From IMG/VR virus record IMGVR_UViG_3300005098_000230: a DNA stretch of 20,000 nt; one strand, given 5' to 3'. Source of the DNA: an uncultured virus (IMG/VR IMGVR_UViG_3300005098_000230) (taxonomy: Duplodnaviria > Heunggongvirae > Uroviricota > Caudoviricetes). The notes under the pieces were generated by a model. It saw only the letters and a program-made list of their open reading frames with translations, had not been told where the DNA came from and did no database searches. Of the stretch, positions 1-16,963 are shown in pieces (the first letter of the stretch is position 1; every line of letters begins with the position of its first letter). The translations under genes and the position numbers were made by a program.

Positions 1-1757
1 AACCGGGCGTAGGCGCTGTTGTAGACCGTGTCCAGGTAGACATCAACGTCAATGTCTATCAGTAGAGGATTGGATAAGGCAATGCAGAGGAAGTCGCTGG
101 TGGTGAACATACCGCCACCCGTGACATCTTTAGGTTTAGGTGTGGTGAATTGCTTGTATGCTGTGAGGTCTGGATACAGACTATTAGCATTCACACCATC
201 CTGATCGGCGGAGTTCCATTCTACGAAGTCGTCTGTTTCTCTGCTTGCATTAGTCATTACCTCATCAAATGCGAAGACCGGCATCCAGTTATAGTCTTCG
301 TAGCCATCAAACCCCTCATCATCCAGCAGTGTACTGCCCCCAATGCGCTCCCACAGCAAGTCAACGCGGTTAGTGAAGCGAGGGTCGAGTGTGAGAAAGT
401 CAGTGCCCAGGGGCGTTGCCAGTCTTAGGAATTGGAGAGTGTCCTGGCTCACGATATGACAGACCTCCCCAGAGAAACTCTCCAAAAGAAGTTTCTCGTT
501 GTTATCCACTCCCTCACTACCGCAATCTATCTGGAGCACATGCTCATCCACTGGTAGGAGCATGAGGAAGTCAATGTCGAAAGAGGAGTTGTCAGTGGTA
601 GAGTCACCAGCAGCCCGGGTAACACGAACATCTATGTAGGCAGCGATAGATTCGCTATCGGACACCTCAGTGGGCGGCATCTCGACCTCACCAATGATGA
701 AAACCATGAAAGTCCCAGTGCCAGAGAGGTAATTCACCCCTGGGGTGATGGACTGAATTACCTCACCGGCGCGGTATTGGGCATCTATCGTCCAGTTGGC
801 GCGGTCGGCGTCGTTGACGCGGGCGACGATAGCGAGGGCCATACGCCCCCGATGGTAGGCTTCATTGGCGATGGTGAACCGCAGAGCTTGGGCAACACCG
901 TTCCACCCGCTTCCAAACGAGGCACGCTTGTAGTAACCCCTGTTGCGGCTGGCGTCGGACACATCTGACCAGACAGCGCCAGTAGATACATCGGCGGCAT
1001 CGCGAGCATCGTAGATGCTCACGAACTGGTCGAGGCCGGCAGTGCGGCGGGCAAGCCAGAGCGTACCGATTGCCTCACTAGCCCCCGTTTGGAGGTTGCG
1101 GATCCGAAGCTGGCATAGGGCAGGACTATCGCCCCCAATCTCAGATGAGGCAACAGTGAAATAGTTATATCTTCCAGCACTGGGGTCGTAACCGTTGTGC
1201 AGAATGGTGCGGTTGAGGGTGAGGGAAACAGGATTGTCAGGGTCGGAGGTCGCGTAGGGCTGGGTGTTGAGCGTCACATCCACGTTGAGAGCATAGACGT
1301 AGTTGGGACAGGTTTGGACAGGCGCAGCATCCCAGTTGTTTCCGCTGGCACGAGCAAGGCGTGGGACAGGACTCATCAAGTAATGGTAGTAGGTGCTACG
1401 GACACTGGCGTCCAAGTCGTCGGGTTTGTACTCCAGGGTGCCGCCGTCTGGATTGGTCACGGCCTGGCGCAGGGCATGGACTCGCTGTATCAGACTGGCT
1501 CGCGCTGCCGCAGCAGTAGCGCCGACACCGTGAACCACCACTCGAAAACTCACCTCCACCAGTGGGCCGTGGTAGCTGGACAGATCACCGCCGTCCATCC
1601 TCGGTCCCTCGGACAAGGCAATCTCCAGTCGCTTCTCCTCATTGAGGGTGAGGGTGGCAAGGTTTACCACGTAGTCCTCTACAGTCGGGTCGGCTCCAGA
1701 TGCAGGAAGCAGGTCAATGTCAGACAGACCTTCAGGGTGAAGGATCAGGATTGTCAT
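1..1757 (-). CDS. Distal tail (Dit-like)/minor tail protein, truncated at the window edge (>585 aa)
   Basis: Absent from the ORF track because there is no stop in the window. Manual translation from ATG 1757, which overlaps the TMP stop as ATGA, reads MTILILHPEGLSDIDLL...VDVTLNTQPYATS...IGGDSPALCQLRI...FDIDFLMLLPVD... and stays open to base 1. It lies directly after the tape measure gene. Confidence 0.75.
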   Translation of the reverse strand, partial: MTILILHPEGLSDIDLLPASGADPTVEDYVVNLATLTLNEEKRLEIALSEGPRMDGGDLSSYHGPLVEVSFRVVVHGVGATAAAARASLIQRVHALRQAVTNPDGGTLEYKPDDLDASVRSTYYHYLMSPVPRLARASGNNWDAAPVQTCPNYVYALNVDVTLNTQPYATSDPDNPVSLTLNRTILHNGYDPSAGRYNYFTVASSEIGGDSPALCQLRIRNLQTGASEAIGTLWLARRTAGLDQFVSIYDARDAADVSTGAVWSDVSDASRNRGYYKRASFGSGWNGVAQALRFTIANEAYHRGRMALAIVARVNDADRANWTIDAQYRAGEVIQSITPGVNYLSGTGTFMVFIIGEVEMPPTEVSDSESIAAYIDVRVTRAAGDSTTDNSSFDIDFLMLLPVDEHVLQIDCGSEGVDNNEKLLLESFSGEVCHIVSQDTLQFLRLATPLGTDFLTLDPRFTNRVDLLWERIGGSTLLDDEGFDGYEDYNWMPVFAFDEVMTNASRETDDFVEWNSADQDGVNANSLYPDLTAYKQFTTPKPKDVTGGGMFTTSDFLCIALSNPLLIDIDVDVYLDTVYNSAYAR

Positions 1758-4700
1758 GCAATACCTCCAGGAACAGCAGCGCGGGCAGTGGCCACGTCAA
1801 CGCTGGCTTGAATCTCCGTCAAGAAATCGCGGGCATCGCGCCCATCGCGCACGCCAGGGAACACTGGGTTTTGGATGTAGATAACAGTAGACGAACCTCC
1901 TGCTCCAGCCACAGCAGGAGCGAGGGCAGGCATGGCAGGCGTGAGACTAGCATGGAAGCGTGACATGGCAGCCTCCAACCGGGGCACGGAAGTGCGGATG
2001 CTGGCAATAAGCGGGTCGGGTGCAAGAGACTCCCAGCGAATGGGGACTGAGAGCGGACCCGTCTTCGCTGGCGAGTGAGGGAATCTGTCGGCCACCTGGC
2101 CCAATACATCAGCCAGAGGCCCAAGTCGGGATTTGATCCCCTCGATGAGATTGTTGATCAGGTTTGCCCCCCAATCTTTCATCCGCCCCACGAGCTCGGC
2201 GAAGATTTTTTCGAGTTTGTCTCCCAAGCCCGCGAATATCGCCAGCATGTCGTCCACGAGGTCTGGGATGATGCTGCCCCCAACAAGGTCGTGGTAGAGG
2301 TTCTCGAAGAAGCCAATGATACCTTGAATGACTTGCTCAATGATGGTCAACACTATCGTCTTGAGCTGCATGAAGGTGGTCTCGATGTCTCGGCGCAGTT
2401 TGGTTATGACACCACCAGAGCCGGTGATGGCGATCCATAATCCCTCCAACAGGCCCAGCAGGGTACCACATAGCGCCTCGATCAGGCCGAGCACGACCCG
2501 TGATGCGCCTTCCAGCATGTCACTCAAACCTTGCCAGAGTTCATCCCATAGTTGGTGAGCGCGTGCTTTGGCCCCCTCTAAATCCCCAGTCAGAACTTTG
2601 TAGAGGATTTCAAGAGCACCGACAAACCCTCCAACCATGACTGCAACAAGTCCACCCAGATATTGCACCAGTCCACCCAGCGCCTCACCGAGACCAGGCA
2701 GGGCAGCACCGATGGCGTTGAGCGCAGCAAGGAGAGTACCAGCCAGCAGAAGCGCGAGATACCCTAAGAGTTTGAGCAGATCGCGCAGGGCGTTATCCCA
2801 CGACCGCAAGCTCTCAACGTGCAGGTTGGAGACGAAGCCCTTAGCCCCCTCAACAAGTGTGTTGAAAACGAGCGTGAGCCGGTCGCCAGCAGCCTCCAGT
2901 TGGTCAAGGTAGGGGATTTTCCTCTTGAGATCGTCGAGCCAGTTGGTAAGCCTCTCGGCCAGAGTGGTGGGCAGGGATTGGAGTGCTGCTTTCCACTCCG
3001 CGATCATCTCCCGCGCTTTCTGCCTGGCTTCCTCGAACCGTTCAGAAAGCGTGCTGGAGATGGAGAGAAGTGAACCCATCTCCTCCGTTCCTGTGACCTC
3101 GGGTTTGATGGCGGGTCGAGCCTTCACCTCTTCTGGTAGCTCCAGATCAATTTTGAGAGGGGTTTTGGAAATCTTTTTAAGGGCCTTCTCGATGCCCTCC
3201 AGCGTGTGTAGGAGTTCCAACTGGAGATCAAGGCCGGCCTGCCGCTGTTGTAGGAACTTCTCTTGTAGTGCCAGTTGCTCACCAGCAGCATCGGCCTCTT
3301 TCTGAGCAAGAGAGAGCTTCTTCTTGAGCTCAGCGGGTACGAAGCCTTTGGCCTCTGCCTCAGCTACTTCATCCTGCACGGCCTTGAGCTTGTCCTGTGC
3401 CTGGGTGAACTTCATTTGAAGTTCAAGGAGCTTGGCCAGCTCATCGCCGCCTTCGCCCAGCGCCTCAGCAAACTTGCGCAGGGACTCAGTGGGTATTTGC
3501 CCTGTGCGCCTGAATTCGTCTATTAGGGCGGCCACCTGAGCACGGGTCTCAGCGATCTTGCCGGGGAGCTTCTCAATGGGGATTTCGTGCATCTGAGCCA
3601 GACCACGCAGGTACCGCTCAATAGGTTGCAGTGACCTCTCTAGGATGCTATAGTCAGCCAGAGAGAAGCCCCGCAGATAGGTCTCCATCAAGTTCTGCGC
3701 CCAAATGATGATGTCCTTTAGCGGACCTTCTTTGGGCGGGGAGAAAGAGGCCAGGAAGTTGGAGATGGTTTGGCCAACGTAGTTCATCGCAGCCTGAATC
3801 GCATCAGCCACACCATTGATGATCCCTTGTGCGTAGCTGGCGATCAGGTTGTAGCCCCAAGTGAGAGCACGGGATACCCAGTCCTCCCAGATAATAATGA
3901 TCATAGCCAGAGCGTTTTCCATGACCTGCTGGAGGTTGGCAGTAGCGGCAGGGAAATCGCCCTGTAGGGCATGGATGACAGCGTTGATCACCAAGAGCAC
4001 ATTGCTCAACCCTACACGAACGAGCTCCAGGAAGCGTTGCCACGTTTCTGCGAGACTGGGCAAGCCAGATTGAGCCTGCATCATCATTCCAAAGCCAGTC
4101 GCAGCCTCTTTTACCCGTTGGATGACACCACCAATAGCAGTCCCCAGGGTAGACAGAAGCCGTTTCAGCGCATCCAGAATCTGGGGTAGCTTGAAGCCCA
4201 AGACAGAGCGCAGCTGGTCAAGGTAGGGCTGGGCCTGAGTCCATCCAGATTGGATTGTGGAGACAATGCCGCCGAAGAACTCCTTGAACTTGCCCCATCC
4301 TCCCATCACCGCTGATTTGATACCCTCAGTGAATTTGCGGATCGAGGGGCCAATCTTGTCGAAGAGCTTTTTGATGGACTTCAACACATCAGTGAGGATC
4401 AGCACCGCAGTAGACAGCAAGGGGATGAAACCGCGACCGATGGCGAGCTGCGCCTCCTCGATGTACCGGGGGAGAGAGCCTAGCTGCTTACCCACCGACC
4501 CCATCGCTTTCTCGTAAGCGCCGGCGTAGGGGGCGGCCTTCTCCAAGATAGCATTCATCATGGCCTGCTGGCGCTCGCTTGCCGTCAGTGCATCGGCAGT
4601 TTTGCCTATGGACTTAGCGTACTTATCCGCTATCTCAGAGGCATAGATATTGATGCCAATGGCACGGAGAAGCTCTGTGTTGCCGCTCAGAATAGCGTAT

Positions 4701-5290
4701 GTGAACCGCTGGAAAACTTCTGAGGAGTTGCGCCCGAAAACGACGGCCATGTCCTGGCCGGCGCGAGCCAACTTCTCAATGTTCTCGATGGGCAGATTGT
4801 TGGTGAGGAACTGGGAGATAGACGCGATAGACTGGCGGGTGGTGATACCAGTGTGCTTGAGCGTTTCGACCTTCTCTCGCACAAAGTCAACACTGTACCC
4901 CGCGTTGGTCGCCATGACGCTCAGGGTTTCCTCTAGCTTCTCCACCTCAGCAGCAATGCGGGTGGGCTGAGCGATCATCTGGGCGAGAGACTGGGAGACT
5001 GTACCGATGGCCTGGCCCATAGCCACGCCAAAGGCCATGCGCATGACACCGCCGAGGTTGCCGAAAGCACCAGTGAGTTTGCCCACAATCCCGCCGAGCA
5101 TGTTGAGGGGATTAGCAAGACGGAATGCCTGTCCAACGAGTCCACGAAAGACAGAGAGTAATCCCCCTACCCCCTTGACTCCAGACAGTTTACCCAGAGA
5201 TTCGACGCCCGCTTTGGCCTGTTCGAGACCTTTGGGCTCGAACTCCGAGAGTATCTTTAGCAGAACATCACGCGACATTCCGGGTGGCAT
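1754..5290 (-). CDS. Tail tape measure protein (1178 aa)
   Basis: Long Ala/Gly/Leu-rich helical ORF with periodic W/F residues and TMP-like motifs (FSPPKEGPL, GGSIIPDL, FPHSPAKTGPL). It follows the tail tube and chaperone genes. Confidence 0.93.
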   Translation of the reverse strand: MPPGMSRDVLLKILSEFEPKGLEQAKAGVESLGKLSGVKGVGGLLSVFRGLVGQAFRLANPLNMLGGIVGKLTGAFGNLGGVMRMAFGVAMGQAIGTVSQSLAQMIAQPTRIAAEVEKLEETLSVMATNAGYSVDFVREKVETLKHTGITTRQSIASISQFLTNNLPIENIEKLARAGQDMAVVFGRNSSEVFQRFTYAILSGNTELLRAIGINIYASEIADKYAKSIGKTADALTASERQQAMMNAILEKAAPYAGAYEKAMGSVGKQLGSLPRYIEEAQLAIGRGFIPLLSTAVLILTDVLKSIKKLFDKIGPSIRKFTEGIKSAVMGGWGKFKEFFGGIVSTIQSGWTQAQPYLDQLRSVLGFKLPQILDALKRLLSTLGTAIGGVIQRVKEAATGFGMMMQAQSGLPSLAETWQRFLELVRVGLSNVLLVINAVIHALQGDFPAATANLQQVMENALAMIIIIWEDWVSRALTWGYNLIASYAQGIINGVADAIQAAMNYVGQTISNFLASFSPPKEGPLKDIIIWAQNLMETYLRGFSLADYSILERSLQPIERYLRGLAQMHEIPIEKLPGKIAETRAQVAALIDEFRRTGQIPTESLRKFAEALGEGGDELAKLLELQMKFTQAQDKLKAVQDEVAEAEAKGFVPAELKKKLSLAQKEADAAGEQLALQEKFLQQRQAGLDLQLELLHTLEGIEKALKKISKTPLKIDLELPEEVKARPAIKPEVTGTEEMGSLLSISSTLSERFEEARQKAREMIAEWKAALQSLPTTLAERLTNWLDDLKRKIPYLDQLEAAGDRLTLVFNTLVEGAKGFVSNLHVESLRSWDNALRDLLKLLGYLALLLAGTLLAALNAIGAALPGLGEALGGLVQYLGGLVAVMVGGFVGALEILYKVLTGDLEGAKARAHQLWDELWQGLSDMLEGASRVVLGLIEALCGTLLGLLEGLWIAITGSGGVITKLRRDIETTFMQLKTIVLTIIEQVIQGIIGFFENLYHDLVGGSIIPDLVDDMLAIFAGLGDKLEKIFAELVGRMKDWGANLINNLIEGIKSRLGPLADVLGQVADRFPHSPAKTGPLSVPIRWESLAPDPLIASIRTSVPRLEAAMSRFHASLTPAMPALAPAVAGAGGSSTVIYIQNPVFPGVRDGRDARDFLTEIQASVDVATARAAVPGGIA

Positions 5291-5340: not shown

Positions 5341-5369
5341 TTGACAATGCACGTGCAATGTGGTATGAT
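5341..5369 (+). promoter_or_regulatory. Sigma70-type promoter of the moron gene
   Basis: TTGACA (5341-46), 17 bp spacer, TATGAT (5364-69) with an extended TG. SD AAGGAGG precedes ATG 5398. Confidence 0.85.
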
Positions 5370-6469: not shown

Positions 6470-7081
6470 TTAGTACTGCCAGATGTCGTAGGCGGCTACC
6501 TCGTTGCCATCCGAGTCTAGAATCTGCGGATCGGTGTAGACCTTGAGCGTCACACCAAACTCCATCGGATTGTCCTTGTCCCACACCCGTTGGGTTTCGT
6601 CGCCTGACCGCTTCGTGTAAGGAAAGATAGTGGCTGAAATCTTGTTGTTCTCATCGAAGTCGAGAACAGCCACGCGATAGACCGTCTCATCCTTGCGGTT
6701 GGTGTAGAACAAGCGATACTCGCTATTGACAGCATCATCGTTGAAGTCCACACCCTGCTTCACGAACTCCAAGACGGTCCGCGACCACTCTGCCGGCGTG
6801 ATCTCAACCGTGCGGTTGTAGTCTGACTTGCGGGTGTTGATGACTCCGAACTGCTGGGTGTCAATCTCGGTCACATCGAAGCCCTCGCTCTCAGTGACGG
6901 GCTGAGTGGTGATCCCAATGTCGAACCACCCATTAGCCGCCACAGGATCGTAGGTGGTCAAGCTGATGATGTCTGAGAGCTGCAAGGGATAGGACGTGAG
7001 GTAGCTCGACCGCTTCTGCAACAGAACGCGGGCGATCTTGATTTTGACATTCGCTTTGGTGCCACGATACTGACCAGCCAT
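6470..7081 (-). CDS. Major tail (tube) protein
   Basis: ~203 aa beta-rich protein (WFDIGITT, EIDTQQFG, MEFGVTLKVY) with strong SD AAGGAGGT, upstream of chaperones and TMP. The start may instead be GTG 7090. Confidence 0.8.
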   Translation of the reverse strand: MAGQYRGTKANVKIKIARVLLQKRSSYLTSYPLQLSDIISLTTYDPVAANGWFDIGITTQPVTESEGFDVTEIDTQQFGVINTRKSDYNRTVEITPAEWSRTVLEFVKQGVDFNDDAVNSEYRLFYTNRKDETVYRVAVLDFDENNKISATIFPYTKRSGDETQRVWDKDNPMEFGVTLKVYTDPQILDSDGNEVAAYDIWQY

Positions 7082-7099
7082 AGTAGGCACACCTCCTTG

Positions 7100-9633: not shown

Positions 9634-10719
9634 CTACCACACGCTTGAGTTGAGCACACGGGCTGAGAGCACCCGCTTCGGCCACGTGAACTTCGGGAAG
9701 CAGTGCTCGCCCACACCAGTTTCGACGGTGTAGGGCGGCTTCAGGGCCTCATGTACCCAGGTGTAGCGGGCTCGCGGCGCAGGCGCACCACCCCTCGCGC
9801 TTCCAGGGGCCACGGCCATAGTACCCACAGTTGCGTCGCCTGGCAGGAGGACGATCTTCTTGTCGTCCACCATGTCAGTCTTGGTGATGGTTGGCTCGGT
9901 GGAAGTATCGGTGATGACCGAGTACTTGGCGCGGTAGAGGATCACCTGCACATCATGGAGCTCTTGGATGAACTGCTGTACCTGCGTCATGGTCAGAGCA
10001 GTCGGCTGGTTGGCCGAGGCGATGCCCCGAGTCGAAGACCACAGGTTGAGGACAGCGCTGTTGCGGGATAGCACCCACAGCACATCGCGGCTCACGATCA
10101 TGGCCCCGGGTCGCACACCACCAGTGTCCTCGACAGTGACGATCATCTTGCCGATGTCCTGGATGGGGTCGGATCCGCTCTGATCCCAGTACTTGGTGCC
10201 GTACAGATTGGTGGCATCCGTCCACTTGGTCAGCCCTGGCCACGTGACCTTGATGCGCACCTTGCGGTCGGTGTCCCAGGAATTGTCCACCTCACCCTCG
10301 AAGAGGGCAGACATTCTCATCCACTCTTTGGTGGCGTCTATCGCACCAGACAGGAGATTGGCGTAGTCGCGGATGTCCTCCAGGGCTTGGAGCTGGCGGG
10401 CAGCGATCTCCGAGTTGGGATTGGCCGCCACTTCGTGCCAGATGCGCAGTTCCTTCTCCGTCCAGATTTTGCGGAAGCGAATGTACGCCACAGCAGTGCG
10501 GATGCGCTGGTAGACGTTGTCGCCGATGATCGGGATTTCCGAATCCAGGGTCACGAACGGGGCCATCGGATTGCGGTCAAGGCGCAGGTCGTTGACCAGC
10601 TCATCGGCAGGCACGCCTTGATCGGGGAACCAACGAGCGCCGATATAGTTCTTCGGGATGTCTGTCTCACGGATCAGGCCATCCCACACGGGTTTCTGGA
10701 AAACAGTTGGTAGCGCCAT
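9634..10719 (-). CDS. Major capsid protein (lambda gpE-like family)
   Basis: 361 aa with motifs MAPFVTLDSE, EWMRMSALFEG, WDQSGSDPIQDI and SD AAGGAGGT. It follows the decoration protein. Confidence 0.9.
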   Translation of the reverse strand: MALPTVFQKPVWDGLIRETDIPKNYIGARWFPDQGVPADELVNDLRLDRNPMAPFVTLDSEIPIIGDNVYQRIRTAVAYIRFRKIWTEKELRIWHEVAANPNSEIAARQLQALEDIRDYANLLSGAIDATKEWMRMSALFEGEVDNSWDTDRKVRIKVTWPGLTKWTDATNLYGTKYWDQSGSDPIQDIGKMIVTVEDTGGVRPGAMIVSRDVLWVLSRNSAVLNLWSSTRGIASANQPTALTMTQVQQFIQELHDVQVILYRAKYSVITDTSTEPTITKTDMVDDKKIVLLPGDATVGTMAVAPGSARGGAPAPRARYTWVHEALKPPYTVETGVGEHCFPKFTWPKRVLSARVLNSSVW

Positions 10720-10747: not shown

Positions 10748-11158
10748 TTACAGCCGGTCGCCAGACACGAAGAAGACGCGCCCGGAAAGGTCGGACTTGG
10801 TATCGGCAGTGACGGAGCCGAAAGTGCCGTTGTCCGTGCAGACGGCCTCGCGCACCCATCCAGCCAGGATCACATCCACGGCGGGGTGGTAGGGCGGAGT
10901 GTCTACTTGGATGGGCACAACGACCCGCTGGTGCAGGATACCCACGGTGTTCCCAGTGGCGGTCTTGGGATAGACCATACCAGTGGACGAGTCGTAGGCC
11001 AGGACGGTGCCCTCGCGCAACCACTTGAAGCCCTGGTCGGGGCTGTTGGTGGTGCTCAGGTAGGTTCCGTTGAGGGTGTAGGTGCCGATGACCTTGCCCA
11101 CGTCGCTGGCGAACAGTTGCAGTTGGCGATCTTTGGTGCTTTTGTCGTAGTAGCTCAT
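10748..11158 (-). CDS. Head decoration protein (gpD-like)
   Basis: 136 aa with EGTVLAYDSSTG..YP, GIL and VILAGWVRE. It lies between scaffold and capsid genes, with SD GAGGAGGTGA. Confidence 0.75.
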   Translation of the reverse strand: MSYYDKSTKDRQLQLFASDVGKVIGTYTLNGTYLSTTNSPDQGFKWLREGTVLAYDSSTGMVYPKTATGNTVGILHQRVVVPIQVDTPPYHPAVDVILAGWVREAVCTDNGTFGSVTADTKSDLSGRVFFVSGDRL

Positions 11159-11191: not shown

Positions 11192-11875
11192 CTAGTCTTC
11201 ACTCTCAGCGGGCTTCTCGCCCAAAATCCTGAGAATGCCCTGGGCCACGGCCTGCCCCTCCTCAGTACTGAGCTCGCGGGTGGTGGAGCCCAGAGCACGG
11301 AGCGCACTTACCAGATCGCCGCTGGGAGCAGGCGACCCGCTGAGTTTCAGCACCGGCTTGTCGGAGCGAGCGGGGTAGTTCTCCATGAGGCTGGTCAGGG
11401 CCTGCCACAGGTTGATCTTGCCTCCCTGCTCCAAGCCAAACACCTTGCCCTCACCTTCGGTCAGGGTGATGATCGGCTTGGCGTCGGGAGAGAGAGACAG
11501 CAGGATCGGTCGGAGCATCCTGGCCAACACGGGTGGCGGGTTCTTGGCCTCGAATTCGCGCAGCGCCTCGGCAACACGCCCCTCGTGGATGTCGGCCAGC
11601 ATCCGCTGGCGCTCGGCCATGAGCATCTGGATTGCCTCTGTCGCCTCCATCTCCACCACGCCATCAGCGGTCTCCAGCTTGACCATCTGCGGCCTGGGCG
11701 GTTCAGGCGGGTCTGAGGGCTCTTCCTCCTCGTGCTTCTCCAGGGCCTGCACCCGCTCTTCGAGTTCCTTCACCCGCTCGTCGCGGTCAGCGAGCAGCTT
11801 TGGCACTTCCTCCAAAGGTACCTCTTTCTCCTCGCCGTCCACAGTCAACTTGATGGTTTTGACTTCATCGGACAT
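11192..11875 (-). CDS. Nested in-frame scaffold protein (gpZ-like), 227 aa
   Basis: Perfect internal SD AAGGAGGTGA (11883-11892) precedes in-frame ATG 11875 (MSDEVKTIK...). Confidence 0.7.
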   Translation of the reverse strand: MSDEVKTIKLTVDGEEKEVPLEEVPKLLADRDERVKELEERVQALEKHEEEEPSDPPEPPRPQMVKLETADGVVEMEATEAIQMLMAERQRMLADIHEGRVAEALREFEAKNPPPVLARMLRPILLSLSPDAKPIITLTEGEGKVFGLEQGGKINLWQALTSLMENYPARSDKPVLKLSGSPAPSGDLVSALRALGSTTRELSTEEGQAVAQGILRILGEKPAESED

Positions 11876-12865
11876 GGGGGGTTCACCTCCTTCGAGATTG
11901 GTGGGAGTTTCCTCTTCTGATAGATAAGGCTCAGTTTTGGGCGGGACTATCTCTATCCTGCCCTCCTCAAGACAAATCATTGGCGAATCAATCGGGGGGA
12001 GTTCTTTCAGGAAATTGCGATTGGTAAGAGTGATCTCTTGGAAGACGGGCCCCAGATGGGGATCATCCAGGTACTTGGGCGAGATGAAACTGTACTGCCT
12101 GTCAGCCACGATCTGAGCACCCCGTTTTGTCCAGTTGGGCTTGGCCAGCAGGTAAGGCTCTTGAATCCGCATATCCTCAATCCAAGCACATGCCCCATCG
12201 CCGCTGTGACGAGTATCCATGACGATCTGGCGATTGAGAGGTGCGTTGGGACGATAGAGACGGTTGCGGAAGTTCTCGATGCCTCGCTGCATTTTCTCCC
12301 GAGTCATGGTGAAGTGACCATAACGGGGATCGTCCCACTCGCCGAGGACGTGGATAGGCACCCACTCAGGCAGCTCCTCACCCTCTTCCAGGGTAATCGG
12401 GCCGAAAAAGTGGAAAGTGAAGGCTTCCAGCAGGGTCTCAGGCGGGTCTTTCTTCGCTGCGCGGTAGACAGCGAGCAGCTTTTTCTTTGCCTGGGCTTTT
12501 TGCTCTGGGGTGGCCTGGACTTTCCTTCCACGAAAGCCACCAGGCGAGAGGGCAGCGACGGCAGCGGGGATGTGGTCCCAGTCTGGCGAGCCGTCTGCGT
12601 GCTTGTAGGGCATTTTCCATGTGGAAATGTCGTTAGGATCGCCCACGATCAAGTAGCATTCTGCCGGCAATCCTTCCTTGAGCAGCTTCTTCTTTGCCAC
12701 CTCTTCCTCCTCAAGGTCTCGCCCCAAGTCGCCGAGCTTGCCTTGTTTGTACAGGTTGGTGCAACGACCGTAGGCCCGACTCACCCTCTCCTCCTCTGGG
12801 AGGTCGGGGTAGAAATCAGGGCTACGTAGTAAGCGGGTTTTGCAATTCTCGACTTCTTGGGGCAT
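11192..12865 (-). CDS. Capsid maturation protease/scaffold (Mu gpI-like) with extra N-terminal domains
   Basis: Central region IVMDTRHS, ACAWIEDM, WTKRGAQIVADRQYSFISP, ITLTNRNFL matches the Mu gpI protease pattern (DxxH...W...YxYISP...LTNxP). The C-terminus is an acidic coiled coil. The ORF-track start 12892 lies inside the terminator, so ATG 12865 is preferred. Confidence 0.85.
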   Translation of the reverse strand: MPQEVENCKTRLLRSPDFYPDLPEEERVSRAYGRCTNLYKQGKLGDLGRDLEEEEVAKKKLLKEGLPAECYLIVGDPNDISTWKMPYKHADGSPDWDHIPAAVAALSPGGFRGRKVQATPEQKAQAKKKLLAVYRAAKKDPPETLLEAFTFHFFGPITLEEGEELPEWVPIHVLGEWDDPRYGHFTMTREKMQRGIENFRNRLYRPNAPLNRQIVMDTRHSGDGACAWIEDMRIQEPYLLAKPNWTKRGAQIVADRQYSFISPKYLDDPHLGPVFQEITLTNRNFLKELPPIDSPMICLEEGRIEIVPPKTEPYLSEEETPTNLEGGEPPMSDEVKTIKLTVDGEEKEVPLEEVPKLLADRDERVKELEERVQALEKHEEEEPSDPPEPPRPQMVKLETADGVVEMEATEAIQMLMAERQRMLADIHEGRVAEALREFEAKNPPPVLARMLRPILLSLSPDAKPIITLTEGEGKVFGLEQGGKINLWQALTSLMENYPARSDKPVLKLSGSPAPSGDLVSALRALGSTTRELSTEEGQAVAQGILRILGEKPAESED

Positions 12866-12873
12866 AGCATTCC

Positions 12874-12912
12874 AAACAAAAAAGCCGCCCACCCTGCAAG
12901 GGTGAGCAGCTT
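12874..12912 (-). terminator. Intrinsic terminator just upstream of the structural operon
   Basis: AAGCUGCUCACCCU-UGC-AGGGUGGGCGGCUU followed by UUUUGUUU. Both imperfect pairs are G-U on the minus strand. Confidence 0.85.
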
Positions 12913-13056
12913 ATTCCCGCTGTTGCGGCGACTTCTGCTTCACTCGCGCAGGGCAGGCGGCTTTCCCGACTAACGGCGACTACCGCCGACTGTTTGCGCG
13001 GGGCACCGCCATTTCTGCCCAGGTTCTCACCACGAAGGCGGGCCCCTATTCGCTTA

Positions 13057-13209
13057 AAAATGGATCCATCTGCGTCAGTTCACCACTATTAGTGGTGTCA
13101 CTAACCTCCCCCACTCCCAAAACCAGAGGGGGAGGTTGTGACTGGGGACGGTGCCCCTCTATGTTCGGAAAATGGGGTCTCTTGTGCCAGTTCGCCACTA
13201 TTAGTGGTG
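13057..13209. repeat. Two degenerate ~41-bp direct repeats ending in a 17-bp palindrome
   Basis: CAGTTCACCACTATTAGTGGTG (13076-97) and CAGTTCGCCACTATTAGTGGTG (13188-209), period 112 bp. Each is preceded at equal distance by AAAATGG. Confidence 0.85.
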
Positions 13210-13220
13210 CTTCGTCACTT

Positions 13221-13249
13221 ATTGTAACACAGATTGCCTAATTTGTCAA
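13221..13249 (-). promoter_or_regulatory. Strong sigma70 promoter facing the virion operon
   Basis: Minus strand TTGACA-17 bp-TACAAT with extended TG. The transcription start is expected near 13214. Confidence 0.88.
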
Positions 13250-13429
13250 GGTGGGTTTGGTGATCAAGTCCTTGATCGTTTCGTAACTTTCCGTAACTTC
13301 GTAGCGCTTGCCATCACCCAACCGCACGACAACCGGGTAGTGTGGATATATCGGCTCTACGATTTCGCTGATGTTTCCAACATTGATCAGTACCCTTGTA
13401 CCACCCACCTTATGCAATTCGATCATCAT
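13238..13429 (-). CDS. FlbD/SwrD-like small protein (63 aa)
   Basis: MMIELHKVGGTRVLINVGNISEIVE...VVVRLGDGKRYEVTESYETI resembles the FlbD pattern MIxLTxLNG..xLNxxxIExIE....IxLxNGxKYxVxES. SD GGGAGGAG. Confidence 0.65.
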   Translation of the reverse strand: MMIELHKVGGTRVLINVGNISEIVEPIYPHYPVVVRLGDGKRYEVTESYETIKDLITKPTLTN

Positions 13430-13706
13430 AACAGCATATCTCCTCCCGAAGACGTGTGATCTCTTTGGTTGCCGCGTCCAACACCACCAATAGCACTGCC
13501 TGTTGCATCCTCCGTTCGTATGGTCTTTGCCAGCCGAGATGATAGGCAAGGCAAATGCAAAACCAGCGGATAGGGCCAACCTCACGCCGGGCACGGGCTT
13601 GGACTTGAGCGTAGGAAATCTGTAACCCGCCCCACTCAATCGTAGTCCGGCGGTGCAGCGACTGAACATATTGCTCACAAATACGGTCTAGGGAGTGCAG
13701 TTGCAC
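13410..13706 (-). CDS. Hypothetical protein (~98 aa)
   Basis: GTG 13706 follows GGAG. The ORF fills the gap between the SPL-like and FlbD-like genes with short overlaps. The start is uncertain. Confidence 0.45.
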   Translation of the reverse strand: MQLHSLDRICEQYVQSLHRRTTIEWGGLQISYAQVQARARREVGPIRWFCICLAYHLGWQRPYERRMQQAVLLVVLDAATKEITRLREEICCYDDRIA

Positions 13707-14692
13707 ATCAGGCTCTCCGGGCCGAAGCCCAGGGCCTCCCTGACCTCCACTGTCTCCTTGCATAGTCCCACCTCCAGACCGGGATTGATAGGGCGCAAGT
13801 ATTGGTCAATCCATTCAATCACTTTTGTGTACATCTCCACCCGCAGCTTGGCAGGTACGCGAAAGCGCCCATCGGCTTCCGTGCGCTCAGTGGCAAAGTC
13901 GAAAACCTCGAAACCTGGACGCCTCCCCTGCGCCGCCTTGCGACGAACCCCCACTTTGTAGCGGAGGGAGCCAAGAGTGATGCGTTCAGGGCGACAACCA
14001 AGAGCCGCCAGAACGCGGATGAAATCCTCGTATTCCCATTGCCAGCGGGGGATGGGAATTAGGGGATCAAATCGGAAGCGAACCCGCCAGCCCGCAGAGT
14101 CACAGCGATTGGCAGCCAGCGCCCGCTCGTAGGGAGTGGGAGCGAACCTCTCGAACGCCTCTGCCACAGCGGGGGCATTCAGCGAGAAAGACAAGATCAC
14201 TTGGGGTGTGGGCGGGCGGATTCCGCCCCACTCGAACGCCCGGGTACCCACACTCTTGGTGAGGAACAGGAGATAATGCCGCTCCTGGGCAGCAAAGATG
14301 GGGACGAGACGACGCGAGAGGCCAGTGTGCTCATCAAAAACAAGGCCATCGCAAATCTCGCCGGCGTTGAGCACAGCGGGGCCGTTGTGTCTGTCATCAA
14401 CCAGCCAGTTGCGGACATTCGCTTCCATCCTATCAAGATTGGTGTAAAGCACTGGCACGGTTGTGTCCTGGTTCCTGAACGTGTTTTGAAGATAGCAATA
14501 GGAGCATAGGAAAGGACAGAGGTTAGCATGAGCGAGGACCCAGAACGAGGGGCAGACGATGCCGTCTTCTGCGCCCTTGAACTTGTGGATGAAAGGAGAA
14601 CGGCGCTCCCGCTCCACTATGGGCACAGGCTGAAAACCGTTGTTTAATCGCGCCCGAGCAAAAGTGTATCTTACTTCATCGTTATCGTTCAT
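13688..14692 (-). CDS. Spore photoproduct lyase-like radical SAM protein
   Basis: CPFLCSYCYLQ (CxxxCxxC with the SplB-like YCYLQ), plus LTKS, SFSLN, FDPLI, ITLGSLRY and LCKE motifs of the SPL family. Confidence 0.85.
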   Translation of the reverse strand: MNDNDEVRYTFARARLNNGFQPVPIVERERRSPFIHKFKGAEDGIVCPSFWVLAHANLCPFLCSYCYLQNTFRNQDTTVPVLYTNLDRMEANVRNWLVDDRHNGPAVLNAGEICDGLVFDEHTGLSRRLVPIFAAQERHYLLFLTKSVGTRAFEWGGIRPPTPQVILSFSLNAPAVAEAFERFAPTPYERALAANRCDSAGWRVRFRFDPLIPIPRWQWEYEDFIRVLAALGCRPERITLGSLRYKVGVRRKAAQGRRPGFEVFDFATERTEADGRFRVPAKLRVEMYTKVIEWIDQYLRPINPGLEVGLCKETVEVREALGFGPESLMCNCTP

Positions 14693-14883
14693 TTGTCCTT
14701 GCCCCTCACCGCCTCAGCAATCCAGCATTGACCGCAGTTGCAGGTAAGATGACAATACACGTGAGGCAGATCAGCGATTCTTTTCAGTATCGCCTGACAC
14801 CCCGAGCAAGAAGTGCTCTTCATGGCATCGCTCGGGGTCATCAACGCTTTCATACCCTTACGCTTGACACGCTTTAGTCCCAT
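14689..14883 (-). CDS. Small Cys-rich putative zinc-binding protein
   Basis: CSGC...CHLTCNCGQC, SD AAGGAGG, and ATGA overlap with the SPL-like gene. Confidence 0.6.
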   Translation of the reverse strand: MGLKRVKRKGMKALMTPSDAMKSTSCSGCQAILKRIADLPHVYCHLTCNCGQCWIAEAVRGKDK

Positions 14884-14886
14884 GCG

Positions 14887-15480
14887 CTATCCTCCTTCTT
14901 GAGCCTGTTCTTGATAACTTTCTTGAGCGTTGGTTTGACAGAAATGCAAATTTGTGGTAATATTACTGTACGGGAAGAGGGTACTGACAGCAAAAGCTGT
15001 CGAGGGTCGAAGTCTCATCGCTGTGGATCCGCCCTCCAGAAGACTCTCCCAGCGGCCACTGGGGGAGGCTTCTTTTTTTGGTGGTACTACGGGTAGTATC
15101 ACCACCTCGATCTGCCCGTATGCTTTGCCCTTCTCCCCACAAAGCTCCGTTGTCAGCGCAGGGGAGAGGTCGGCGACGAACTTGGGATTGATCTCCGAAA
15201 ACGCTCCCGTATCCGTCCACCTCGCCATCACCCATTTCGGCTTCCCTACTTTCCAGAAGCCGTCTGGGTGGTCCTTGTTTTTCAGGTGTGGCCAGTAGGC
15301 ACGGCCTGTCCAGATGATGATGTACCACTGACCGTCTGGAAATGTCTCGCCCCACAGATTGTTGGCCGCGAAGGTGAGTTCTTGTCCTGTGTAGACCTCA
15401 CCGTTGCGGGTGAGGTTGCCTGTGGGGGGATACCACGTTGCCAGGCCAACTATGAGGCCAGTCATAAAGAGTGACTTCAT
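14887..15480 (-). CDS. RlpA-like double-psi beta-barrel (putative lytic transglycosylase-like) protein
   Basis: GLATWY...TRNGEVY...LTFAA...WTDTGAF...ADLSPA...GQIEVVI parallels the RlpA GxASWY..TAxGE.Y...LTAA...INDRGP...IDLS pattern. The N-terminus is short and hydrophobic. Confidence 0.65.
   Translation of the reverse strand: MKSLFMTGLIVGLATWYPPTGNLTRNGEVYTGQELTFAANNLWGETFPDGQWYIIIWTGRAYWPHLKNKDHPDGFWKVGKPKWVMARWTDTGAFSEINPKFVADLSPALTTELCGEKGKAYGQIEVVILPVVPPKKEASPSGRWESLLEGGSTAMRLRPSTAFAVSTLFPYSNITTNLHFCQTNAQESYQEQAQEGG
14935..14963 (+). promoter_or_regulatory. Sigma70-type antisense promoter
   Basis: TTGACA (14935-40), 17 bp spacer, TAATAT (14958-63) with extended TG. Confidence 0.7.
14969..15079 (+). 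ncRNA. Candidate ~110-nt small RNA
   Basis: Lies between a promoter and a terminator. Stems are GACAGC-AAAA-GCTGTC (14986-15001) and GAGGGT/GCCCTC (15002-15036). Confidence 0.6.
15038..15079 (+). terminator. Intrinsic terminator of the candidate sRNA
   Basis: AGAAGACTCTCCCAG-CGGCCA-CTGGGGGAGGCTTCT running into a T7 tract. Confidence 0.8.
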
Positions 15481-15991: not shown

Positions 15992-16963
15992 TTAACCTCC
16001 TTCGATGGAATTTCTCAACCACTTCTCTCTCAGCCCCGGCCCGTACTTATTCTTCCGGGGCTGTACCCTCTGCACATACACGCGGGTGGTACTCAGGTTC
16101 TTGTGGCCGAGGGCGGCCTGTGCTTCGGGCATCGAGGCCCCACTATCGGCCACGCCACGGGCGAAAGTGTGGCGGAAGGTGTGGACTCCTATGCGGAGGC
16201 CCACTTTCTCCGCATATTTCTTCACCCGATGGTAGATTGTCCAACTACTCATTGGGGGTACTGGCTCATCCTCTGGGCAAGCCCAAGTGGAAATGAACAG
16301 CCCAGACTCCGGCTTCATCACCCCCAACCGCCCCCAGGCTCGCAGGTACTCCACAATGGCGTCCCGCGCTGCGGGATCGAGCTCCGCTTCCTCCGTCTCG
16401 CCGCCCTTAGCGATGTAGCGGATGGTGTACGGCTGCTCAAACAGCCGCACATCGGCCCACCGCAGGCGGGCAATTTCAGAGCGCCGGCGACCAGTGAGAA
16501 GGTAGGTGAGGATCATGGCATAGTCTCTCTGACCAATGCGGGTGTCGCGGGGAATGACGGCGAGCAGGCGCTGGACCTCCCCGTCTGAGAGGGCGCGGGA
16601 GGTATTGTAGGGCTTGATGCGCTTGCGCTCCACCTTGTCCACAGGGTTCTCTTGGAGCAGTCCCTTGTCCACGAGGTATTTGAAATAGGCGGAGATCATA
16701 CTCACCCGGGCGTAGACGGTGGTGGGGGCAAAGCCGGCAAGCTCCTGCTCGACCCGCCATGCCTCTACGTCCAGTGAGGTTACTTCGCGGGGATGCTTCC
16801 CGCACCACGCGAGGAAATTGGAGACAGTGTGGACTCTTTTGACAGCGTTGGAGCGGGCTGTGACCTGATTTGGCTGGAGATTGGCCACGGCCCAAGCTAC
16901 CACTGATTGCGTGACTGCCGTTTCCTCCTCGATGGGAATGAGATTCTTGTTTCCCTCGTTCAT
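15992..16963 (-). CDS. Tyrosine recombinase (XerC/D-like, no arm-binding domain evident)
   Basis: Catalytic set intact: TGRRRSE (R), AKGG (K), HTFRH (HxxR), LGH, TTRVY (Y). N-terminal core-binding domain (APTTVYARVSMISAYFKYL...NPV). Confidence 0.93.
   Translation of the reverse strand: MNEGNKNLIPIEEETAVTQSVVAWAVANLQPNQVTARSNAVKRVHTVSNFLAWCGKHPREVTSLDVEAWRVEQELAGFAPTTVYARVSMISAYFKYLVDKGLLQENPVDKVERKRIKPYNTSRALSDGEVQRLLAVIPRDTRIGQRDYAMILTYLLTGRRRSEIARLRWADVRLFEQPYTIRYIAKGGETEEAELDPAARDAIVEYLRAWGRLGVMKPESGLFISTWACPEDEPVPPMSSWTIYHRVKKYAEKVGLRIGVHTFRHTFARGVADSGASMPEAQAALGHKNLSTTRVYVQRVQPRKNKYGPGLREKWLRNSIEGG

Follow-up and report, generated by a model that had tools for sequence, protein, structure and literature searches.

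What is the role of a strongly folded and apparently non-coding stretch that lies between a strong promoter and a terminator at the head of the virion genes of a phage? The question is raised by a 20,000-nucleotide (nt) piece of DNA, here called the window, from an uncultured tailed phage (IMG/VR record IMGVR_UViG_3300005098_000230). The window is part of a 73,355-base-pair (bp) contig, as given in the protein-database entry for its protease, and coordinates below are those of the window. An earlier note had proposed that a structured leader of about 340 nt on the minus strand, with alternative pairings between promoter and terminator, gates the virion operon as an RNA switch or forms a stand-alone RNA. 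The answer favoured here, to which we give a probability of about 0.5, is that promoter, leader and terminator together would make up a gate, in the style of lambda PR'-tR', in front of the virion (head-tail) operon.

The promoter is of the sigma70 type and lies at 13221..13249 (-), where it matches the consensus at 11 of 12 positions: TTGACA (13249-13244), a 17-nt spacer, TG (13229-13228) and TACAAT (13226-13221), with a predicted transcription start at about 13215-13213. Two matches of 11/12 occur in the window, one per strand, and the leader promoter is the sole one on the coding strand. The predicted terminated transcript (12874..13215, -) is about 337-342 nt long and has no convincing open reading frame (ORF); its sense direction is ORF-free except for a frame of 50 amino acids (aa) with a GTG start inside a hairpin. 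It ends at a local 14-bp terminator hairpin (12882..12912, -) followed by T6-G-T3, which has the most stem pairs (14) among the 24 terminator-like sites of the window; the U-tract UUUUUUGUUU (12874..12883, -) was read from the sequence. The end of the stem lies 16 nt from the protease ATG at 12865, and there is therefore no space for a separate promoter between the two. Both promoters and terminators were called as consensus matches, the promoter consensus being of the E. coli type, which may not be that of the host. The two signals on which the earlier note was built, a near-consensus sigma70 promoter (11/12 with TG) pointing into some 340 nt without a sense ORF and a 14-bp intrinsic terminator (T6GT3) just before the protease ATG, are both present as described.

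Related loci were gathered through the structural proteins. A HMMER search with the protease gave 1553 matches at E ≤0.001, 122 of them at ≤1e-10 and 11 at ≤1e-30; alignment of the best protease matches led to two viral contigs, L003 and L004, and a capsid alignment of these two and the window led to five more contigs with seven loci between them. The gene order protease-decoration-capsid of the window, together with a homologous protease, was found in L003, L004, L007, L009 and L010, which together with the window make up the six loci compared here. L011 and L012 were left out, having 25% capsid identity, no detectable protease homologue and a different gene order. All six loci have a terminator 9-30 nt before the protease start, and five of the six have a strong promoter, on the same strand as the terminator and always with TG. 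In the window, a stem of 14 pairs stands 16 nt from the protease start, behind the 11/12 promoter whose -10 element ends 308 nt before the stem. The corresponding figures in the relatives, with stem-to-start distances read from the sequence to the putative protease start, are 12 pairs, 22 nt, 12/12 and 213 nt in L003; 15 pairs, 30 nt, 12/12 and 489 nt in L009; and 12 pairs, 9 nt, 10/12 and 272 nt in L010. L004 has a stem of 9 pairs 15 nt from the start and two promoters at 11/12 (561 nt from -10 to stem), while L007 has a stem of 10 pairs at 19 nt and no promoter of at least 10/12 within about 1 kb.

The arrangement that the earlier note had seen in one phage, in which promoter and terminator bracket a structured ORF-free stretch ahead of the virion operon, thus recurs as a bracket at the same place in relatives. 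As a distance of 9-30 nt between terminator and start leaves no room for a promoter, head-gene transcription must pass the terminator in all six phages. The start at ATG 12865 gives the window protease the N-terminus MP, which is the same in four of the five relatives. The database gene call instead begins at GTG 12784 (530 aa) behind GGAGGAG, which would place the terminator 97 nt upstream of the start, compared with 16 nt for ATG 12865.

What lies inside the bracket is not retained. The earlier note had staked its proposal on conservation of the leader in related phages, and here it did not hold up: the six leaders share no similarity, and blastn-short among the six inserts gave nothing at E ≤1 except one 11-nt match between L004 and L009. 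The inserts of the window and L003 are ORF-free, and those of the other loci hold a 112-aa ORF (L004), a 93-aa frame with a sub-threshold winged-helix match (L007), about 215 nt ending in a further hairpin and T-run (called by eye) and then a 58-aa frame (L009), or a strong 5' hairpin and a 55-aa frame (L010). These frames are putative, as Pfam searches of the relatives' small ORFs returned sub-threshold matches only. Homology between the small ORFs of L009 and L010 was looked for and not found, nor did BLASTP align a 117-aa frame of the window (13410-13763) with the upstream ORF of L004. Folding differs as well: the L003 insert gives z -2.8 with its terminator and z -0.36 without it, the first unit of L009 z -2.0 and L010 z -6.4. 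Because promoter and terminator recur and the DNA between them is unrelated in every phage, the conserved thing is, as far as the sequences indicate, the gate and not the RNA.

Direct searches for the leader and for near relatives of the phage were unsuccessful in each collection. Viral contigs held no match to the hairpin motif or to the arms of the long hairpin, and the protease and capsid protein as single queries gave no confirmed match there; the protease alignment gave none confirmed in genome and metagenome contigs. The hairpin 19-mer had no match in metagenome contigs and one in genome contigs, within a coding region of a Clostridia metagenome-assembled genome, which was taken as chance. 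The leader had no blastn match in the phage collection, and tblastn of the protease against the phage and plasmid collections returned only matches of 24-39% identity, among which a Microcystis phage was set aside for its different layout. In the five relatives' records, the palindrome described below and the leader DNA gave only 3-mismatch or 11-18-nt matches (best E 0.02).

The promoter itself is shared with one relative. From -35 to -10, the window and L003 are equal at 25 of 29 positions (counted by eye), and 14 of the 17 positions of the spacer AATTAGGCAATCTGTGT (13227..13243, -; also given as AATTAGGCAA) are equal, for which the binomial P(≥14/17) is 1.1e-6 under a uniform model. Of the 11-mer AAATTAGGCAA, the window and the L003 record contain one copy each, and the promoter 20-mer was found among viral contigs in L003's own contig only; the spacers of L004, L009 and L010 differ from that of the window. 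Because the promoters of the window and L003 are alike and their leaders and upstream genes are unrelated, the promoter is therefore part of the conserved frame and not of the insert. The spacer is a candidate factor-binding element. No pause element could be called at the window promoter; a spacer with 14/17 positions in common with L003 would fit a Q-binding element. L003 also carries, at 2400-2494, two divergent promoters back to back, each a perfect 12/12 with TG, and a perfect 16-bp palindrome GTACCAATATTGGTAC (2450-2465) abuts the -35 element of the rightward one. Further upstream, a 100-aa frame of L003 (2014-2316) has a sub-threshold match to a Mu Com-like zinc ribbon (E 0.004).

In the reading favoured here, RNA polymerase would start at the near-consensus promoter, or come from the upstream operon, make about 337 nt and terminate at a strong fail-safe terminator 16 nt before the ATG of the protease/scaffold gene, the by-product being an RNA that is stable and highly folded. 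Transcription of the genes for protease, capsid and tail would wait for a trans-acting phage factor that confers termination resistance (processive antitermination), and the leader's own alternative pairings would not be able to open the terminator. Candidate loading sites for such a factor, as DNA or RNA, are two 17-bp palindromes or hairpins at about +6 and +118 and the conserved spacer. What was observed directly is the set of signals in the sequence, the statistics of folding, the absence of a fold that would act as antiterminator, and a bracket kept without its content. From these we infer a promoter and terminator that are active in the host, regulated read-through and the existence of the factor.

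This logic matches that of lambda PR'-tR', and the window element is therefore read as such a gate. An account of lambdoid Stx phages describes PR' as always active, with lysogenic transcription stopping at tR' and leaving a short by-product RNA; there Q lets polymerase read into the late genes, and the by-product of the Stx phage became the small RNA StxS (PMC7547250). In common with the lambda arrangement (PMC7547250), the window has a strong promoter directly before the late operon and, some hundreds of nt further on and right ahead of the first late gene, a terminator; a short terminated RNA by default and a need for read-through to reach the virion genes would be shared as well. The window differs in that no Q homologue was found in the window scans or in the five relatives' records, and in that its first late gene encodes a head protease and not a lysis protein. 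The gene just upstream of its promoter encodes a 66-aa FlbD-like protein, its leader is longer, internally duplicated and much more folded, and inserts of its type vary among relatives and sometimes contain ORFs. The 6S RNA of lambda, by comparison, is 194 nt long. Of the parts of a Q unit, then, the promoter and the terminator are found as pattern matches, whereas a Q gene, which usually lies just upstream of the promoter, was not found among the window ORFs scanned or in the five relatives' records.

The leader RNA stands out by its folding. The minimum free energy (MFE) of 12874-13215 (-) is -158.7 kcal/mol, whereas shuffles gave -123.7 +/- 5.9 (z -5.96), none of the 100 folding as well. 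Among 173 tiled segments of 342 nt on the minus strand, the top three places in GC-adjusted folding energy go to the three segments overlapping the leader, the leader itself lying 3.5 residual standard deviations out, and its 5' 250 nt give z -3.1 (1 of 200 shuffles as good). Every stem named in the earlier note was recovered in the MFE fold, in pair probabilities or in constrained folds. A 17-bp hairpin made of Watson-Crick pairs only, GUCAC AACCUCCCCC ... GGGGGAGGUU A GUGAC, lies at 13097..13142 (-) with a probability of 0.90-0.96; GGGGCACCGUC (13157-47) pairs with GGCGGUGCCCC (13010-00) at 0.54, and GGGGCCCGCC also pairs with GGCGGUGCCCC. At the 3' end, a long terminator hairpin of 86 nt (12880..12965, -) has a 19-bp basal helix (4 G.U), inner helices and a CCGC-AACA-GCGG apex and ends in the U-tract (pair probability 0.99; z -6.63, 0 of 200 shuffles as good). 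Its CCGC/GCGG apex has a pair probability of 1.00, and AAAGCCGCC (12964-12956) pairs with the terminator 3' arm as part of the 19-bp helix at 0.99. The CGCGCA/UGCGCG enclosure shows up once the local terminator is forced.

The earlier note had also observed that several imperfect pairs are G-U on the transcribed strand only. A strand asymmetry of this kind stands for the 3' terminator domain, which reaches -59.6 kcal/mol on the minus strand with 6 G-U of 37 pairs and -52.0 on the plus strand with 1 of 31. It does not stand for the 5' 250 nt, which fold alike on both strands (-100.2 versus -100.0), as does the hairpin at 13097..13142 (-28.6 versus -26.2, about equal); the z of the whole stretch is -5.9 on the minus and -6.9 on the plus strand. 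It is therefore the promoter, the U-tract and the terminator domain, and not the 5' stems, that speak for the sense strand as the functional one. The view that the leader belongs to no named RNA family was borne out: Rfam release 15 gave no match in the window at gathering thresholds, the best sub-threshold matches (E 0.23-9.6) lying far below those thresholds, and no match in L003 and L004. A tRNA or transfer-messenger RNA was also considered and rejected, as ARAGORN called no gene.

Mutually exclusive pairings do exist, as had been claimed. GGCGGUGCCCC (13000..13010, -) has two alternative partners, 13157-13147 (11 bp) and 13046-13037 (10 bp plus a bulge), and the long and local terminator hairpins use the same 3' arm. 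As an RNA switch, however, these pairings fall short, since both low-energy folds put a helix at the U-tract. Constrained folds gave -158.7 kcal/mol with the long hairpin, -150.3 with the local terminator forced and -134.3 with the 3' arm unpaired, so that the local-terminator fold lies 8.4 kcal/mol above the MFE and the best fold with a free 3' arm 24.4 above it. AAAGCCGCC is complementary to the 3' arm and not to the 5' arm of the terminator, and its pairing therefore gives a longer helix that still abuts the U-tract. In these models both accessible states are terminators, and no antiterminator state of comparable energy is predicted; a comparably stable fold that prevents the terminator helix, by which an attenuator or riboswitch is known, was not found. 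A further possible pairing of 9 bp (one G-U, probability 0.83) joins UUCCGAACA at 13170-13162 in the first module described below with UGUUUGGAA at 12878-12870 (-), which follows the U-tract closely and covers the weak ribosome-binding region of ATG 12865. By a rough estimate, about one such helix is expected by chance.

The earlier account had overlooked a 41-nt direct repeat in the 5' part of the leader, with copies at 13169..13209 (-) and 13057..13097 (-) that are 78% identical and 112 nt apart. Both start with CACCAC-TAATA-GTGG(C/T)G, and copy 1 consists of a palindrome and the tail GAACUG.C.CA...CCAUUUU. The palindrome of copy 1, CACCACTAATAGTGGCG (13193..13209, -; about +6 to +22), is symmetric at 16 of 17 positions, its one asymmetric position being an A.C mismatch on the sense RNA, and forms a hairpin with a probability of 0.82. 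That of copy 2, CACCACTAATAGTGGTG (13081..13097, -; about +118), is a perfect 8+1+8 DNA palindrome with a hairpin probability of 0.84. The palindrome 15-mer has no other copy in the window at up to 2 mismatches and one further match at 3 mismatches (4126; 0.29 expected by chance). Similarity of the two units continues, with gaps, over about 115 nt, and each can be closed by ACUGRC/GUUAGU. With the two modules aligned, 3 of 23 predicted pairs are changed on both sides, a count that carries no statistical weight with two sequences. Several other identities for the repeat and its surroundings were considered and not retained. A mimic of a clustered regularly interspaced short palindromic repeat (CRISPR), suggested by the form of hairpin and tail, was dropped, as the lone 19-mer match in genome contigs is in a coding region and not in a repeat array. 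A diversity-generating retroelement or retron was set aside, as the repeat mismatches are not adenine-specific and Pfam and PHROGs scans showed no reverse transcriptase. Nothing favoured an attP or cos site, and the promoter-terminator bracket recurs in relatives.

Several points weigh against a gate opened by an antiterminator. Pfam searches of 24 plus 5 window ORFs and PHROGs searches of 24, covering 20 of 73 kb, found no domain of the Q family or of another antiterminator; searches with PF06530 and PF03589 had hits in none of the five relatives' records, four of which are fragments, and PF06323 likewise in none of the five, its control giving no match anywhere. L007, which has the terminator, lacks a promoter match of 10/12 or better over about 1 kb of the strand concerned, and the scan with an E. 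coli-type consensus may not apply to the phage's host. A leaky terminator would allow read-through with no factor at all. Furthermore, the gate model leaves the strong folding (z -3.1 for the 5' 250 nt) and the duplication of the insert unexplained; the L003 insert, by contrast, folds no better than chance once its terminator is taken away (z -0.36).

The folding and the duplication bear on a second explanation, namely that promoter, 337-nt RNA and terminator form a self-contained insert, an autonomous non-coding RNA gene or 'RNA moron' that is expressed from the prophage and acts in trans like StxS. Phage morons, units of promoter, gene and terminator, are described as independent transcription units spread by horizontal transfer (PMC3594210). 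The window's unit resembles them, being bracketed by promoter and terminator and holding other content at this site in every relative; the inserts of all six loci are unrelated. The outlying foldedness and the diverged tandem duplication of a module of about 115 nt that ACUGRC/GUUAGU can close also speak for it, and StxS offers a precedent for terminated leaders acting as small RNAs (PMC7547250). However, the window's content is non-coding, and the terminator has kept its position relative to the protease start in 6/6 loci. The promoter is shared with L003 independently of the insert, so the two did not move together, and a joint acquisition of promoter, cargo and terminator is not what was found. 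No homologue of the RNA turned up in any collection searched, so that conservation or covariation cannot support a function, and the 5' domain shows no strand preference in folding. We consider an autonomous RNA gene unlikely on this evidence, and it is compatible with the gate, in that a by-product RNA may have gained a function.

The symmetry of the palindromes bears on another explanation, at the level of DNA. The two 17-bp palindromes could be operators for a dimeric DNA-binding repressor or roadblock, at about +6..+22 and again 112 bp downstream, that silences the promoter until late, with RNA folding being incidental. Copy 2 is a perfect 8+1+8 through its centre, which is more symmetry than an RNA hairpin requires, and the one change that sets copy 1 apart makes an A.C mismatch in the sense RNA. 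The equal folding of the 5' 250 nt on both strands agrees with this, as does the siting of the first copy, at which initiation or clearance would be blocked by a bound protein. In L003, too, a perfect palindrome, of 16 bp and another sequence, lies directly against the -35 of the homologous promoter. Against operators, conservation between the copies runs 24 nt past the palindrome on the 3' side only and in blocks, no helix-turn-helix protein was found among the window ORFs in Pfam and PHROGs scans, and 20 kb hold no further copy of the palindrome. Moreover, repression would not account for a conserved terminator directly before the protease, and we regard operators as a rather improbable explanation of the element.

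The same repeats also invite comparison with the RNA sites of lambda N/nut and rrn-type antitermination. Each module starts with a hairpin of the size of boxB, a 5-6-bp stem with a 5-nt loop, and a conserved U-rich CCAUUUU block lies about 24 nt after it. In the window, however, the loop is self-complementary, making a full DNA palindrome, there are two copies per transcript, and neither a boxA consensus nor an N-like gene is recognisable. It is conceivable, though rather doubtful, that the 337-nt RNA belongs to a type of regulatory RNA new to phages, in which two diverged modules of about 115 nt, both made up of a boxB-sized hairpin, a U-rich tail and a helix that closes the module, load a new small antiterminator protein or act on polymerase directly. 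It would then represent a new processive antitermination system in a clade of uncultivated tailed phages without Q and N homologues, with the gate as its general signature.

An RNA that needs no protein would parallel put of phage HK022, which has two stem-loops in about 70 nt. In that case the leader, perhaps through its two modules, would act in cis by binding its own polymerase and so pass the terminator. Its position fits, downstream of a promoter and ahead of the terminator that comes first in a long phage operon, as do the several stable stem-loops and the lack of a recognisable protein antiterminator. The leader is, at about 337 nt with two modules of about 115 nt, of another build than put. 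The five relatives with the same gate have unrelated leaders, partly with ORFs, and that of L003 is not folded beyond chance, which makes a shared RNA mechanism unlikely; in addition, a constitutive promoter with a self-acting RNA would give constitutive virion genes in a phage that carries an integrase. A put-type leader is accordingly very unlikely. The switch of the earlier note, a riboswitch-like or attenuator leader whose exclusive pairings choose between terminator and antiterminator, is the least credible of all, for its pairings are real (13010-13000 with 13157-13147 or 13046-13037, and the 3' arm with 12965-12947 or 12912-12899), but neither alternative frees the helix next to the U-tract, and even the best fold without terminator is 24.4 kcal/mol less stable than the MFE. 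In addition, the leader has no match to a riboswitch or leader family in Rfam, contains no ORF for a leader peptide preceded by a ribosome-binding site and is not conserved in relatives.

The genes around the leader indicate that the phage is tailed, integrase-carrying and probably temperate, and all long ORFs of the window are on the minus strand. Downstream of the leader, the structural operon begins with the gene for a Mu gpI-like head protease/scaffold (11192..12865, -; PF10123, phrog_328), which is followed by the genes for a 136-aa protein (10748-11158, -), an E-type major capsid protein (9634-10719, -; PF03864, phrog_29), a major tail protein (6470-7090, -) and a tape measure protein (1754-5290, -). 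Residues ~57-146 of the protease (12437-12699, -) match a separate small domain (compare phrog_19463) that occurs alone or fused elsewhere in many database matches, for example in proteins of 104-147 aa at 42-53% identity; it may be ChaB-like. The proteases of L003 and L004 start with a different N-terminal stretch. Just upstream of the tape measure gene start, the non-coding strand carries the window's second 11/12 promoter-like site (5341-5369, +; TTGACA-17-TATGAT with TG), antisense to the tail genes.

Upstream of the leader lie genes for a tyrosine integrase (15992-16963, -), a DNA methyltransferase, a PAPS-reductase-like protein and a radical SAM protein resembling spore photoproduct lyase (13688-14692, -). 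The gene next to the promoter (13238-13438, -) encodes the 66-aa FlbD-like protein (PF06289, 27.3 bits against a cut-off of 24.7), and its final codons and stop overlap the -35 element and the promoter spacer, the stop falling within the spacer. FlbD of PF06289 is a flagellar and swarming family, to which the match of the 66-aa protein is just over threshold; in a protein atlas it groups with clusters of 60-70-aa proteins, mostly viral and some with FlbD. Between this gene and the radical SAM gene, about 250 nt (13439-13687, -) have no convincing ORF, two overlapping frames there (146 aa and 117 aa) having no family match, and a weak terminator-like site is found at 13585-13557. A 64-aa Cys-rich ORF at 14689-14883 (-), with CxxC ... 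CxCxxC and a sub-threshold DUF678 match, is a candidate small zinc-ribbon protein. On the non-coding strand, 14935-15078 (+) is a candidate antisense small RNA unit: TTGACA-17-TAATAT with TG (14935-14963) resembles a promoter, and a terminator of 9 bp and a T-run lies at 15044-15067. Its predicted product of about 105 nt (fold z -2.5) is antisense to the 3' part of a 197-aa gene (14887-15480, -).

The leader RNA, taken alone, remains an orphan without comparative support. Should the gate function in the proposed way, uncultivated tailed phages of one clade, with a Mu-gpI-like protease, an E-type capsid protein and, as some records suggest, genomes of 75-150 kb, would control their head and tail genes by obligatory termination and antitermination. 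As no known antiterminator family was found in the window ORFs scanned or in the relatives' records, this clade would be a place to look for a new one. The slot between promoter and terminator is evolutionarily free, being filled, depending on the phage, by an orphan structured RNA, other non-coding DNA or small ORFs. Such a free slot fits the idea that by-product leader RNAs may serve as raw material for new regulatory RNAs, as in the case of StxS.

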